Shown here in pieces: positions 59,981-63,976 of a DNA stretch of 64,000 nucleotides. The translations under genes were made by a program, and so were the position numbers. Under the pieces are notes generated by a model. It was not told where the DNA came from and made no database searches. It saw only the letters and a list, made by a program, of their open reading frames with translations. The DNA comes from Armatimonadota bacterium (GTDB lineage: Bacteria > Sysuimicrobiota > Sysuimicrobiia > Sysuimicrobiales > Humicultoraceae), in assembly GCA_037443365.1 (NCBI GenBank), contig JBBIOM010000001.1:65693-129692 (forward strand), given 5' to 3'. Position 1 is the stretch's first letter. Each line of letters begins with the position of its first letter.

Positions 59981-60982
59981 CTAGCTCCCCAGGGTGGCCA
60001 CCATCACGGCCTTGATCGTGTGCACCCTGTTCTCGGCCTCGTCGAACACGACCGAGGCGCCGGATTCAAAGACCTCATCCGTCACCTCCATGGCCTCGAG
60101 ACCGAACTTCTGGTAGATCTCCTCGCCGATCTTGGTTTCGCGATTGTGGAAGGAGGGCAGGCAATGCAGGAACTTCACGTTTGGGTTGCCGCTCTTCTGC
60201 ATGACGGCCCGGTTGACCTGGTAGGGGGCAAGCAGCTTGATGCGCTCCCCCCAGACCTCCGGCGGCTCGCCCATCGAGACCCAGACGTCCGTCGCGATGA
60301 AGTCGCACCCCCGCACCCCCTCGTCCACGTCCTCGGTGAGGGTGATCCTGGCGCCTGTCTCCCTTGCGATCTCGCGCGCCTGCTCCACAAGAGCCGGGCT
60401 CTGCTGAAGGCTGCGGGGCGCCACGGACCGGAAGTCCATGCCCATCTTGGCAGCCCCCACCAGGTACGAGTTGCCCATGTTGAACCGCGCGTCGCCCAGA
60501 TACGCGAACGCGATCTGGCTCAACGGCTTATCGCTGTGCTCCATCATGGTCAGCAGATCGGCCAGGATCTGCGTGGGGTGGAACTCGTTGGTTAGGCCGT
60601 TCCAGACCGGCACGCCGGCGTGCCTGGCCAGGTCCTCCACGATCTGCTGGGAGAACCCCCTGTACTCGATCCCATCGTACATCCGACCAAGGACCCGGGC
60701 CGTATCCTTGATTGACTCCTTGGACCCCATCTGTGAACCCGTGGGCTCGAGGTAGGTGACGCGCGCGCCCTGATCGTAGGCGGCGGTCTCGAAGGCGCAC
60801 CGGGTTCGAGTGGAGGCCTTCTCGAAGATCAGCACGATGTTCTTGCCGCGCAGGCGCTGCTGCTCGGTCCCGGCGTAGCGGGCCTTCTTCAAGTCCGCCG
60901 AAAGGTCCAGCAGGAATCTGAGCTCCTGGGGCGTGAAGTCGAGCTCCTTCAGGAAGCTCCTGTTCCTCAGGTTGAAGGGCAT
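59981..60982 (-). CDS. arcB: Ornithine carbamoyltransferase, catabolic (ArcB)-like
   Basis: [29 protein letters not shown]-terminus and GIEYRG (Glu, as in Pseudomonas ArcB). AAGGAGG RBS. Confidence 0.9.
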
Positions 60983-61146
60983 GTCCAGACCTCCTTCGGG
61001 TGACCGCGGGCCGACGCGCCGCAGGAAGCCATGTTTCGACGGCGCCTACTGCCCTCCTCCTCTGGCTGTCCTTGCCGCGGACGTTTTCACTGAACGCCTA
61101 CGGGGTGACAGAATCACAGAACGTTCACAAGAGCCACTACGGCGGA

Positions 61147-61175
61147 TTGACGATGGCGCCCGGGCGTGCTATCTT
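61147..61175 (+). promoter_or_regulatory. Sigma70-type promoter of the amidohydrolase/ABC unit
   Basis: TTGACG-17-TATCTT with extended TG. Confidence 0.75.
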
Positions 61176-61189
61176 CCTCAACGAACGTA

Positions 61190-61226
61190 CTCCTTTAAGG
61201 AGCCGTCCTGCGAGACGGACAAGGAG
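61190..61226 (+). promoter_or_regulatory. PyrR-binding RNA element
   Basis: CTCCTTTAA...CCGTC-CTGCGA-GACGG...AAGGAG: the CUUUAA motif, a GUCCNGNGAG terminal stem-loop and a CUCCUU/AAGGAG closing helix. Confidence 0.8.
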
Positions 61227-61253
61227 GATGCGATGACAGACGGCACCCTACCG

Positions 61254-61280
61254 CGCCCGCCGCTAGAGCGGCGGGCGTTT
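61254..61280 (+). terminator. Attenuator terminator hairpin
   Basis: CGCCCGCCGC-TAGA-GCGGCGGGCG followed by TTT (short U-tract), downstream of the PyrR site. Confidence 0.7.
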
Positions 61281-61355
61281 CGCTGTCCCCGGGCGGGGAC
61301 GGTACCCCGGCAACTCCCAAGAACGCTAAGTGCCCCAGACGAAGACTAAGGGAGA

Positions 61356-62564
61356 GTGGCGCCGACCATGGACACCCACACGGACAGGGTAGAGCACGGC
61401 AACTGGGACAGGGCGCTCGAGCAGGCCGCCCGCGCATTCGGCGGCTGGCTCAATGCGCACACGCACCTTGACCGGGCCAACACCTTCGCGCCCGAGTTCC
61501 TGCAGCATGCCAACATCGATCCGATGGGCGCGGCGGGCCTCTCGCTCCCGGTCAAGCAGATCCTGGTGGGCGAGCTGCACAAGGGCCTCGCCTACCAGCC
61601 CGAGAGCCTCTATGCCCGCATGCGGGCCGAGCTGGAGCGCATGGAGGCAATGCACACGCGCGAGGTCATCTCGTTCGTGGACGCCACCCCGGACATCGGG
61701 CTGGTGGCCATCGAGCAGGCGGCGCGGCTGCGCGAGGAGTTCCGGGGCCGGCTTGCGCTCCGGATCGCGGTTTCGCCGATATTCGGCTTCAAGAACCCCA
61801 GGACCAACCCGGACCGTTGGGACGTGTACAGGCAGGCGGCCGAGATCGCCGACGTGCTGGGCGGGCTGCCCTCTCGGGACCGCGCGGAGGGCCGCGTGGG
61901 CTTCGACGGACACGTCCGAATGGTCCTGGAGCTCGGAAAGGCGCTGCGCAAGCCCGTGCACTTCCAGGTGGACCAGGACAACGATCCGAGGGAATCCGAG
62001 ACCGAGCAGCTCGTGCAGGCGGTGAGGTGGCTGGGATCGCCCGCGGCGGACGGGGAGAACGGTCCCACGGTATGGGCCGTACACGCCATCTCGCCATCGT
62101 GCTACGAGGAGGGCCGCTTCCAGCGCCTGGTGGAGGACCTGCTGGCCCACCGCGTGGGCGTCATCTCCTGTCCGACGGCGGCGCTGTCCATGTTCCAGCT
62201 CCGCCCCATGGTGGCGCCGCTGCACAACTCCGTGGCGCGGCTGCTGGACATGATGGCCGCCGGCGTGCCCGTGCGCATCGGAACGGATAACATCTGCGAC
62301 ATCTTCATCCCCAACGGCGACGGCAGCGCGCGCAGCGAGCTGTGGGTGGCGGCCTCTGCGCTGCGGTTCTATCACACGGTGGTCTGGGCGAAGATCGGGG
62401 CCGGTGTGGCCCTTAACGAGGGCGACCGCGAGTGGATCCGGCAGGCCCTGGCGAGGGCGCGCGACACCTGGTCCACGGTGCGGGCGACGCTCGCAACAGC
62501 GGCGTCAGACGGCAACCGCCGGGACCACGCCGAGGACAGAACGCACCTGGCCGCGGCGCGGTAG
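61356..62564 (+). CDS. Amidohydrolase, cytosine deaminase (CodA)-like
   Basis: NAHTHLD (HxH), LGGLP, HFQVDQDND, VHA, SCPT, IGTDNICD. Start is GTG 61356 or ATG 61368. Confidence 0.85.
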   Translation: MAPTMDTHTDRVEHGNWDRALEQAARAFGGWLNAHTHLDRANTFAPEFLQHANIDPMGAAGLSLPVKQILVGELHKGLAYQPESLYARMRAELERMEAMHTREVISFVDATPDIGLVAIEQAARLREEFRGRLALRIAVSPIFGFKNPRTNPDRWDVYRQAAEIADVLGGLPSRDRAEGRVGFDGHVRMVLELGKALRKPVHFQVDQDNDPRESETEQLVQAVRWLGSPAADGENGPTVWAVHAISPSCYEEGRFQRLVEDLLAHRVGVISCPTAALSMFQLRPMVAPLHNSVARLLDMMAAGVPVRIGTDNICDIFIPNGDGSARSELWVAASALRFYHTVVWAKIGAGVALNEGDREWIRQALARARDTWSTVRATLATAASDGNRRDHAEDRTHLAAAR

Positions 62565-62695
62565 CCTCACGGAGGAATCAGCGCGCGCAGACCTGAAGTG
62601 TATCGGTTGGCGGGCAGCGGCGGCGTGCTCCGAACGCCGTGCCTGACTGGGAGCCATCGCCGTCGCGCCAAGTCATCTGCGAGGAGGTTCCAGCC

Positions 62696-63976
62696 GTGAG
62701 GAAGGTCTGGACTGCGATAGCCGTCGCCGCCGCGGTCCTTGCGATGCCGGCCGCCGGCGCAGGGCAACCGCGAGTGACAATCACCTACTGGCAGTACTTC
62801 TTCGAGAGCAAGGTCAAGCTCGTTGACCAGCTCATAACCCAGTTCGAGGCCCAGTTCCCAAACATCAAGGTGGCGCACGAGCACTTCCCCTACGACGCCT
62901 ACAACCAGAAGGTGGCCAGCGCCGTCCCGGCCGGCACAGGGCCGGACGTGGTGAACCTGTTCTACGGGTGGGTGCCGCTCTACGTGGACAGCGGCTACCT
63001 GCAGCCGCTGCCGGTCGAGGCGTTCCCGCCTGTGCAGCTCGAGCGCGACTACATCCCGATGATCAGGGGGTCGAAGCTGGACGGCAAGTACTGGGCGATC
63101 CCCACGGCCGTGCGCAGCCTGGCACTGTTCTACAACGCCGATCTGTTCCGCGCGGCCAATGTGGTGCGGCCGCCGGTCACCTGGGATGAGTTTCAGGCCG
63201 CCGCCGAGCGCATGACCGCGCGCGACGACCGCGGCCGGATCACGACGATGGGCTTCGGGATCGCGCCTTCCGGGCAGGACCATCACCTGCTGCGCGAGGT
63301 GCTGTTCCGGCAGTGGGGAGCGTCGCCGTACAGCTCGAACAACCAGCGCGTGACATACGCGACGGACGCCGGCGCCGAGGCCCTGCGCTGGTACACCGAC
63401 CTGATCACCAAGTCCAAGGTCGGCGCCATCGACTTCTTCCCGGGCGCCGGGGGATACCGCAACGCCTTCATGGCGGGCAGGGCGGGCATGATCGTTGACG
63501 GCTCCTTTGCCATCGCCGCGATCCGGCGCGGGACGCGGGCCGCCTGGGGAGTTGCGCCGCTGCCCGGGCGCACGGTGGGCGGCGCGCCTTCCAACTTCGG
63601 CTCCTACTGGGTGCACGGCCTGACGAAGCGGGCGCAGGGACCTCGCCGCGATGCCGCGATCCAGTTCCTCAAGTTCCTGGTCTCGGAGCAGACGCAGCGG
63701 TTGTGGCTGGACGCGGTGGGCGAACTCCCGGCGTACAAGCGCCTGGTCGACGACCCGCGACTCGTCGCCGATCCGGTCTTTGGCCCGTTCGTCTCGGCGC
63801 TCCCTCACGCGCGCGCCACGTTCTTCGTGGATGAGGCCGCGCAGCGGCAGGTGCTGGTGGACGCGGTCAACGAGGTGGTGCTGAACAACAGGCCGCCCAG
63901 GCAGGCACTCGAGGAGGCAGCGGCCAAGGAGCAAAAGGTACTCGACGAGTTCTGGGCCAAGCGCAAGCGCCCGTAG
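62696..63976 (+). CDS. ABC transporter substrate-binding protein, carbohydrate/nucleoside (family 1) type
   Basis: Signal peptide, ITYWQY, FEAQFPNIKV, GPDV, ALFYNADLF, PPVTWDE, GMIVDGSF. GTG after GAGGAGG. Another ORF probably starts at the window edge. Confidence 0.9.
   Translation: MRKVWTAIAVAAAVLAMPAAGAGQPRVTITYWQYFFESKVKLVDQLITQFEAQFPNIKVAHEHFPYDAYNQKVASAVPAGTGPDVVNLFYGWVPLYVDSGYLQPLPVEAFPPVQLERDYIPMIRGSKLDGKYWAIPTAVRSLALFYNADLFRAANVVRPPVTWDEFQAAAERMTARDDRGRITTMGFGIAPSGQDHHLLREVLFRQWGASPYSSNNQRVTYATDAGAEALRWYTDLITKSKVGAIDFFPGAGGYRNAFMAGRAGMIVDGSFAIAAIRRGTRAAWGVAPLPGRTVGGAPSNFGSYWVHGLTKRAQGPRRDAAIQFLKFLVSEQTQRLWLDAVGELPAYKRLVDDPRLVADPVFGPFVSALPHARATFFVDEAAQRQVLVDAVNEVVLNNRPPRQALEEAAAKEQKVLDEFWAKRKRP

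Follow-up and report, generated by a model that had tools for sequence, protein, structure and literature searches.

The subject of this article is a regulatory leader in the genome of an Armatimonadota bacterium (assembly GCA_037443365.1). The stretch that was analysed, called the window below, is 64,000 nucleotides (nt) long and covers positions 65,693 to 129,692 of contig JBBIOM010000001.1; plain positions count from its first letter. Near its end a promoter is followed by a predicted binding hairpin for the regulator PyrR, a short open reading frame (ORF) that runs through a predicted terminator, and then the genes for a cytosine-deaminase-like amidohydrolase and a transporter protein (Table 1). 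Judged from the comparison of related leaders, this is probably a translation-coupled PyrR attenuator of the Thermus type, placed before a salvage-like operon.

Anatomy of the leader

The promoter is the only promoter-like site in positions 60900-61500, where shuffled sequences give an expectation of 0.0. Its pattern upstream of the PyrR hairpin, TTGAC...GTGCTAnnnT, is kept in relatives.

The PyrR hairpin has two stems. In the lower stem, CTCCTT (61190-95) pairs with AAGGAG (61221-26), and the internal loop contains UUUAA. In the upper stem, 61203-07 pairs with 61214-18 around the hexaloop CUGCGA (61208-13). A further copy of AAGGAG lies at 61197-202. The start codon of the leader ORF follows the Shine-Dalgarno (SD) sequence after 5 nt.

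The terminator hairpin itself (61254-77) reads CGCCCGCCGC-TAGA-GCGGCGGGCG and has a predicted energy of -22.7 kcal/mol. Codons 9-10 of the leader, which encode Pro-Pro, lie on its 5' arm (61257-61262). Directly 3' of the terminator tail the window has a second hairpin, and the remaining four leaders of the genus each have a hairpin of different sequence at the equivalent place. The stop codon of the leader immediately adjoins the ribosome-binding site of the enzyme, whose ATG is in frame with a GTG at 61356.

The initial annotation, made from the sequence alone, had placed the promoter, CTCCTT, both AAGGAG copies, the SD, the ATG, the 38-codon ORF and the GC hairpin at correct coordinates. It had also remarked on rare codons in the leader, as the codon counts bear out. 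GC content at third codon positions is 0.66 in the leader, whereas three genes nearby have 0.90-0.91, and 6 of the leader's 38 codons are found no more than twice in a reference set of 1,177 codons. A codon bias of the coding type is absent.

Table 1. Features of the leader and the genes behind it
Feature	Position	Strand	Description or basis
Sigma-70-type promoter	61147..61175	+	TTGACG (61147-52), 17 nt, TG-n-TATCTT (TATCTT 61170-75)
PyrR-binding hairpin	61190..61226	+	Rfam RF00515 alignment; pairing counts
Leader ORF Shine-Dalgarno, AAGGAGG	61221..61227	+	Six of seven bases form the 3' arm of the lower stem
Leader ORF	61233..61349	+	38 codons and TAA (61347-49), MTDGTLPRPP...DED
Predicted intrinsic terminator, inside leader ORF	61254..61284	+	10-bp GC stem, loop UAGA, tail UUUCGCU
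Second hairpin, inside leader ORF	61285..61300	+	GUCCCC-GGGC-GGGGAC; predicted fold
Enzyme ribosome-binding site, GGGAG	61350..61354	+	Sequence; relatives have AGGAG at the equivalent place
Cytosine-deaminase-like amidohydrolase	61368..62564	+	398 amino acids, first gene after the leader; NF005365, PDB 4r7w
ABC-transporter substrate-binding protein (SBP_bac_1/8), sugar-type	62639..63976	+	Profile matches

PyrR site and pyrR in the genome

The Rfam model of the PyrR binding site (RF00515) aligns over its full length to 61188-61284, with 37.6 bits and an E-value of 9e-4 in a search of 401 nt (61050-61450). It does not reach the gathering score of 54. At the gathering threshold Rfam reports only one tRNA in the window, and the PyrR site emerges only at an E-value threshold. 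Posterior probability is high for the binding hairpin but not for the spacer of this model, which was derived from leaders of the Bacillus type. A PyrR hairpin with a UUUAA bulge and a CCNGNGAG loop region is predicted at the 5' end of the transcript. Across the 2.2 Mb of the genome, it is the only PyrR site according to Rfam, regular expressions and a model built from relatives.

The genome (2.22 Mb in 69 contigs, 97.7% complete, 68.8% GC) also contains an intact pyrR, scoring 234.7 bits with NF003549 against a cut-off of 138 (G000:C10:15747-16274), and a separate upp gene. The initial annotation had called the leader a PyrR leader; both the Rfam scan and the intact pyrR agree with that assignment. 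The pyrR gene has no leader of its own; it comes immediately after a gene identified by eye as pseudouridine-synthase-like and is not followed by pyr genes. PyrR sites were found neither at the rluD-pyrR junction nor in the region after pyrR, and neither upstream of the carbamoyltransferase on contig C12 nor upstream of upp. That contig carries two carbamoyltransferase genes (G000:C12:5447-7365) and, a few hundred bases downstream of them, a gene judged by eye to encode carbamate kinase.

Relatives with the same leader

A search of public genomes with the enzyme's protein sequence gave 19 loci, nearly all in metagenome-assembled genomes (MAGs) labelled Armatimonadota or unclassified. Two were dropped: L023, which holds only the 3' end of the gene, and L022, which has no PyrR site upstream. 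The latter is a low-GC contig labelled Candidatus Paceibacter normanii with an amidohydrolase copy 69% identical to that of the window; gene transfer or a binning problem could account for it.

All 17 remaining loci carry the same element. It consists of the promoter, the pattern ACUCCUUUAAG-nnn-CCGYCC-nGnGAG-RCGGWCAAGGAGG, a variable spacer and a start codon. In an alignment of 18 sequences the hairpin is paired in 99% of cells, with a double change from U-A to C-G in the upper stem, and AAGG[A/G]GG is present in all 18.

A covariance model of the hairpin matched 38 of the 94 genomes in a scan across the phylum. All 24 strong matches (at least 59 bits) fall within 23 genomes of the window's own family. 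These tallies include an unpublished genome (G025) whose locus is outside the leader analysis. Once identical sequences had been merged there were 24 distinct leaders, 23 before an amidohydrolase gene and one (L054) before argC; they are phylogenetically related, and the counts below overstate their independence.

Comparative evidence for translation of the leader

Alignment of orthologous leaders, which the initial annotation had suggested, shows that the start of the leader ORF is kept. A start codon follows AAGGAGG after 5-6 nt in 22 of the 23 distinct enzyme leaders (18 ATG and 4 GTG), and the spacer between them has no consensus. In 19 of the 23, the start opens a short frame of 29-50 codons, and every one of these frames crosses the terminator.

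The short frames also end at a characteristic place. When the enzyme start is taken as the in-frame ATG nearest the leader stop, a choice that tightens the gap figures and leaves the modulo-3 result below unaffected, the stop lies -13 to +18 nt from the enzyme ATG in all 19 leaders and within -4 to +8 nt in 17 of them. The individual offsets are -13, -4 (six leaders, with an ATGA overlap), -1, +2 (seven), +5 (two), +8 and +18 (the window).

The distance from the leader ATG to the enzyme ATG takes nine different values (92, 98, 110, 116, 122, 125, 131, 134 and 140 nt) in 18 of the 19 leaders, and all nine are equal to 2 modulo 3. It follows that no fewer than eight net changes in length came in multiples of three; were these eight independent, the chance would be about 1 in 6,500. 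The exception is the window itself, at 135 nt. Set against its genus, it carries one additional base towards the end; the usual TGA is gone, and a TAA of its own stands 21 nt upstream. Its frame still terminates at the ribosome-binding site of the enzyme.

In three leaders the leader start codon is used for the enzyme itself. The shared SD and ATG of L007 start the enzyme directly, with no terminator, and the ATG of L011 and L020 is in frame with the enzyme, the terminator lying in codons 8-17. Ribosomes must therefore start at the SD and cross the hairpin in those organisms.

Pro-Pro is encoded on the 5' arm of the terminator in 19 of the 22 leaders that bear one, at codons 9-10 or 12-13. The pair may be no more than a result of CCGCC being read in one frame; alternatively, it may slow the ribosome. 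The leader before argC (L054; G005:C60, minus strand, about 918-2102) is of the same design. It has a PyrR hairpin, an SD, an ATG and a 37-codon frame with Pro-Pro over the terminator, and this frame overlaps the start of argC (439.6 bits).

The terminator

Of the 23 leaders, 22 retain a hairpin with a run of U behind it. Its stem is 89% paired in an alignment of 17 sequences, with double changes at two pairs. The stem begins 20-25 nt beyond the start codon, at 21 nt in the window, and 32 nt beyond it in three leaders. This is just past the reach of the footprint of an initiating ribosome. A ribosome a few codons into the frame would cover the 5' arm. The U-tract after the stem has 4-6 U in the relatives versus 3 consecutive U in the window.

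These features bear on two other ways in which the leader might work. Firstly, control could be purely translational: PyrR would block the leader SD, enzyme synthesis would fall through translational coupling, and the GC hairpin would be unregulated, acting as a constitutive partial terminator, a pause site or an RNA-stability element. Such coupling would suit leader stops that abut or overlap the enzyme start in all 19 short leaders. The weak U-tract of the window, the reliance of L007 on SD occlusion alone, and a wide pattern scan, in which 108 of the 122 SD-type PyrR sites among the matches listed run directly into a long frame, point the same way. On the other hand, the hairpin keeps its U-run and a near-fixed distance from the start codon in nearly every leader, with compensatory changes. 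Coupling is not obligatory, since the enzyme gene carries an AGGAG itself, and the pyrR leaders of Deinococcota place a terminator in the same way. Purely translational control is accordingly unlikely, if with some small chance of being right.

Secondly, Rho-dependent polarity could be the main off switch, with the intrinsic hairpin secondary. When the leader is bound by PyrR and untranslated, Rho would load after 61284 and end transcription. The region 61285-61345 is C-rich and lies within the leader frame, and the window's terminator tail is weak; the longer U tracts of the relatives suggest that intrinsic termination matters. As the main switch, Rho seems improbable, but its polarity could operate alongside the translation-coupled attenuation favoured here.

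Search for an antiterminator

Attenuators of the Bacillus type need an antiterminator, a strand of the PyrR hairpin region that can pair with the terminator. In the window, no complementarity of this type links the 5' arm of the terminator with the PyrR hairpin's 3' half. When 17 leaders were aligned and the alignment was cut before the 3' arm of the terminator, the consensus fold kept the PyrR hairpin only. The alignment-level fold was used because pairing and duplex energies of single sequences did not cleanly divide the two leader classes, in part since the terminator finder shortened the long arms of the sister family. The result agrees with the initial annotation, which had seen no classical antiterminator by eye.

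A sister family of the same order serves as a control. There, PyrR sites stand before pyrB, and the hairpin carries an antiterminator, GGCCGGCAAGG, against the terminator arm CCUUCCUUGCCGGC. These leaders (L049-L053 and L062-L067) are of the Bacillus type; they have no leader frame, and an SD and ATG are not well placed. The gene downstream of L049 scores as pyrB at 363.9 bits.

The two AAGGAG copies had been given a part in the switch by the initial annotation, on the grounds that CTCCTT can pair with either. That part of the proposal does not extend beyond one genus. The inner copy is present in only 4 of the 23 distinct leaders (the window, L005, L034 and L036). In the window, the local hairpin that it forms and the PyrR-competent fold are nearly equal in energy (-12.3 versus -13.0 kcal/mol). 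For three relatives in which the inner copy is missing, the structure of lowest energy is the PyrR-competent one. Within the window's genus the local hairpin may make the switch sharper, but the conserved design does not include it.

Proposed mechanism

The arrangement described above can be read as a switch in which PyrR decides whether a ribosome may load, and the ribosome decides whether the terminator forms. Transcription would start a few bases before 61190, and the nascent RNA would fold into the PyrR-binding hairpin, whose 3' arm is the leader SD. When pyrimidine nucleotides are plentiful, PyrR would clamp this hairpin and block ribosome loading at ATG 61233. With the leader untranslated, the GC hairpin, 21 nt past the ATG, would form behind the polymerase, and transcription would end at about 61278-84. 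When pyrimidines are scarce, PyrR would be off. A ribosome would then initiate at 61233, follow the polymerase and cover the 5' arm of the terminator (codons 8-11), which would prevent the hairpin. It would proceed to the TAA at the enzyme's ribosome-binding site, and the amidohydrolase and the ABC importer would be switched on.

The initial annotation had put forward the same scheme, in which PyrR masks the leader SD and, without PyrR, ribosomes disrupt the terminator. It is the best supported of the explanations considered; in its favour are the conserved SD and start codon, length changes that preserve the frame, the natural fusions and the lack of a conserved antiterminator.

Several points weigh against it. 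The RF00515 score is below the gathering score, and with so short a U-tract, termination in the window may be inefficient. The leaders share ancestry, and the choice of the enzyme start flatters the gap figures. Openness of the frame is weak evidence in itself, for dinucleotide shuffles at 69% GC stay open 57% of the time on average, and the two alternative frames lack stops in 11 and 14 of the 19 leaders. In L009 the frame across the stem is unlike that of the other leaders. L010 is the sole leader without a start codon after the SD, and it keeps the site and the terminator. Finally, duplexes between the PyrR site and the 5' arm of the terminator reach -17 kcal/mol in some leaders, in which a GGCGG upper arm could pair with the CCGCC of the terminator, and a weak competitor made of RNA only may exist in leaders with this arm.

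In this leader (L010 / L043, from G031), a duplicated GAGACGG is followed by CCGTC, and a hairpin with a GAGA loop can form that overlaps the base of the terminator. The mechanism may have changed here.

Some of these points would fit a third explanation, in which the leader frame is incidental and regulation depends on an overlooked Bacillus-type RNA antiterminator or on another structure, such as the local CUCCU/AGGAG hairpin. A leader that keeps site and terminator without a start codon, the duplex energies of some leaders, the near-equal folds of the window and the ease with which frames stay open at this GC content are all in its favour. Very little probability is given to it all the same. 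A conserved alternative pairing is absent from the alignment, and the GACGG arm, which the window has too, would mismatch CCGCC; in the window the duplex reaches only -9.8 kcal/mol, with scattered pairs. The inner AAGGAG is restricted to one genus. The invariant start codon, the modulo-3 lengths and the in-frame fusions would be left unexplained.

Comparison with known PyrR systems

Thermus type. For the pyrR-pyrB-pyrC cluster of Thermus ZO5, Van de Casteele et al. (J Bacteriol 179:3470, 1997) reportedly proposed a PyrR switch that needs no antiterminator, in which a ribosome on the leader peptide frame keeps the terminator from forming. Three other pyrR leaders share this anatomy. In L071, from Deinococcota, the hairpin ends in AAGGAGG, a GTG follows 5 nt on, a 22-codon frame runs through CGCCC-CATGC-GGGCG and eight U, and its TGA overlaps the ATG of pyrR (TGATG). 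An equivalent leader of 30 codons precedes pyrR in Meiothermus rufus (L192), and one of 22 codons, with a GTGA overlap, precedes pyrR in a Dehalococcoidia MAG (L069). Like these, the window has an SD borne by the hairpin, a start codon 5 nt on, a terminator inside the frame and no antiterminator, and the leader stop lies at or overlaps the start of the next gene.

The combination of SD masking and attenuation was not known as a described PyrR mechanism to the initial annotation. The leaders of Meiothermus rufus, Deinococcota and Dehalococcoidia, together with the reported Thermus model, contradict its novelty. The window differs from the Thermus type in its targets, which are an amidohydrolase and an ABC transporter rather than pyrR-pyrB-pyrC, and in its phylum, Armatimonadota. 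Its terminator starts 21 nt after the start codon; the corresponding distance is 33 nt for L071 and 36 nt for both L069 and L192. It also has Pro-Pro on the 5' arm, which is absent in L071 and L192.

To our knowledge, the Thermus-type attenuator rests mainly on sequence inspection of a single operon. No Thermus record was among the best 80 matches of a search with a PyrR from Deinococcota, and a search of full-text literature found no paper describing the Thermus model. Passages of PMC6524683, PMC3766115 and PMC1913097 name the Bacillus mechanism only.

Bacillus type. The regulator and its hairpin motif are those of the pyr attenuators of Bacillus subtilis (RF00515), and in both cases an intrinsic terminator follows. 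In B. subtilis the PyrR hairpin acts as an anti-antiterminator, whereas the window has no antiterminator helix that links hairpin and terminator.

Mycobacterial type. Fields and Switzer are said to have reported translational repression by mycobacterial PyrR (J Bacteriol, 2007). Both place the SD within the hairpin's 3' arm, and the pyrD sites of relatives (L055-L058) work in the mycobacterial way, as does L007. In the window, by contrast, the occluded SD belongs to a 38-codon leader with a terminator, not to a structural gene. The 122 SD-type sites mentioned above, which have AAGGAGG in the hairpin arm, are mostly from Actinomycetota, as are those that run directly into a long frame; as matches listed in a pattern scan, they do not give a true taxonomic distribution.

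Enterobacterial attenuators. The window resembles the pyrBI and amino-acid leader-peptide attenuators of enterobacteria in that a ribosome translating the leader decides terminator formation. There, the signal is the speed of ribosome or polymerase; here, a protein would gate the loading of the ribosome.

In a further leader, L048 (G038, another family of the order), the PyrR site includes AAGGAGG, and an ATG located 10 nt beyond it opens a frame over a terminator-like hairpin. By eye, this frame seems to run into a PyrR-like N-terminus.

Putative target genes and pyrimidine metabolism

What the leader precedes is not a pyrR-pyrB... biosynthetic operon, the targets being the amidohydrolase and the ABC transporter. 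The amidohydrolase has no Pfam match. It scores 182.6 bits with NF005365 (cut-off 340) and matches models of cytosine deaminase weakly; against the cytosine deaminase in PDB entry 4r7w the E-value is 3.9e-10. Past the end of the window, two ABC permease genes and an Amidohydro_2 gene follow on the same strand. Farther downstream are genes for a PfkB kinase, a family 4 glycosidase and an RpiR regulator. The genes of this whole run may form one transcript. The operon probably has a role in the salvage of pyrimidine bases or nucleosides, which fits control by PyrR. On the other side, an ornithine carbamoyltransferase gene (59981-60982, minus strand) is divergent from the PyrR promoter.

De novo pyrimidine synthesis appears to be missing. 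In the whole genome, carB (best match 33 bits), pyrE (27 bits) and pyrF (no match) do not reach their cut-offs. A pyrC-like match scores 207.7, below the cut-off of 279. For the DHO_dh domain there is one weak partial match (60.6 bits), in a stretch 22.6% identical to the pyrD of a relative. One missing contig could explain these gaps, given the completeness of 97.7%. If the absence is true, PyrR controls only the amidohydrolase operon, in a pyrimidine auxotroph.

In L055-L058 (G020, G031, G003 and G001), the AAGGAGG of the PyrR hairpin directly serves the start codon of a gene. The product of L056 scores as PyrD (363.1 bits), and the other three were judged to be pyrD by eye from their N-termini. 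G031 is a member of the window's genus, and a pyrD of this kind is lacking in the genome to which the window belongs.

A bolder reading takes several of these points together. A ribosome slowed at Pro-Pro would hold the terminator arm longer, and read-through would also sense translation capacity (EF-P or proline). In this organism, a pyrimidine auxotroph on this view, PyrR would have lost every biosynthetic target and serve only salvage and uptake, and in a relative it would reach argC as well. This reading is improbable.

Significance

The kind of mechanism is already known. New are the target operon, the phylum and the comparative evidence for translation of the leader, which the original proposal is not known to have had. 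Length changes that preserve the frame, stops at the start of the next gene and natural fusions support the view that the leader is really translated. One bacterial order would thereby hold three modes of PyrR action: RNA antitermination, direct occlusion of an SD and the form coupled to the ribosome.

The PyrR regulon would be extended to a cytosine-deaminase-like enzyme and an ABC importer. In one relative it would be extended to argC, and the leader there would link PyrR to arginine synthesis. For the uncharacterised family of the amidohydrolase, the leader provides a functional lead.

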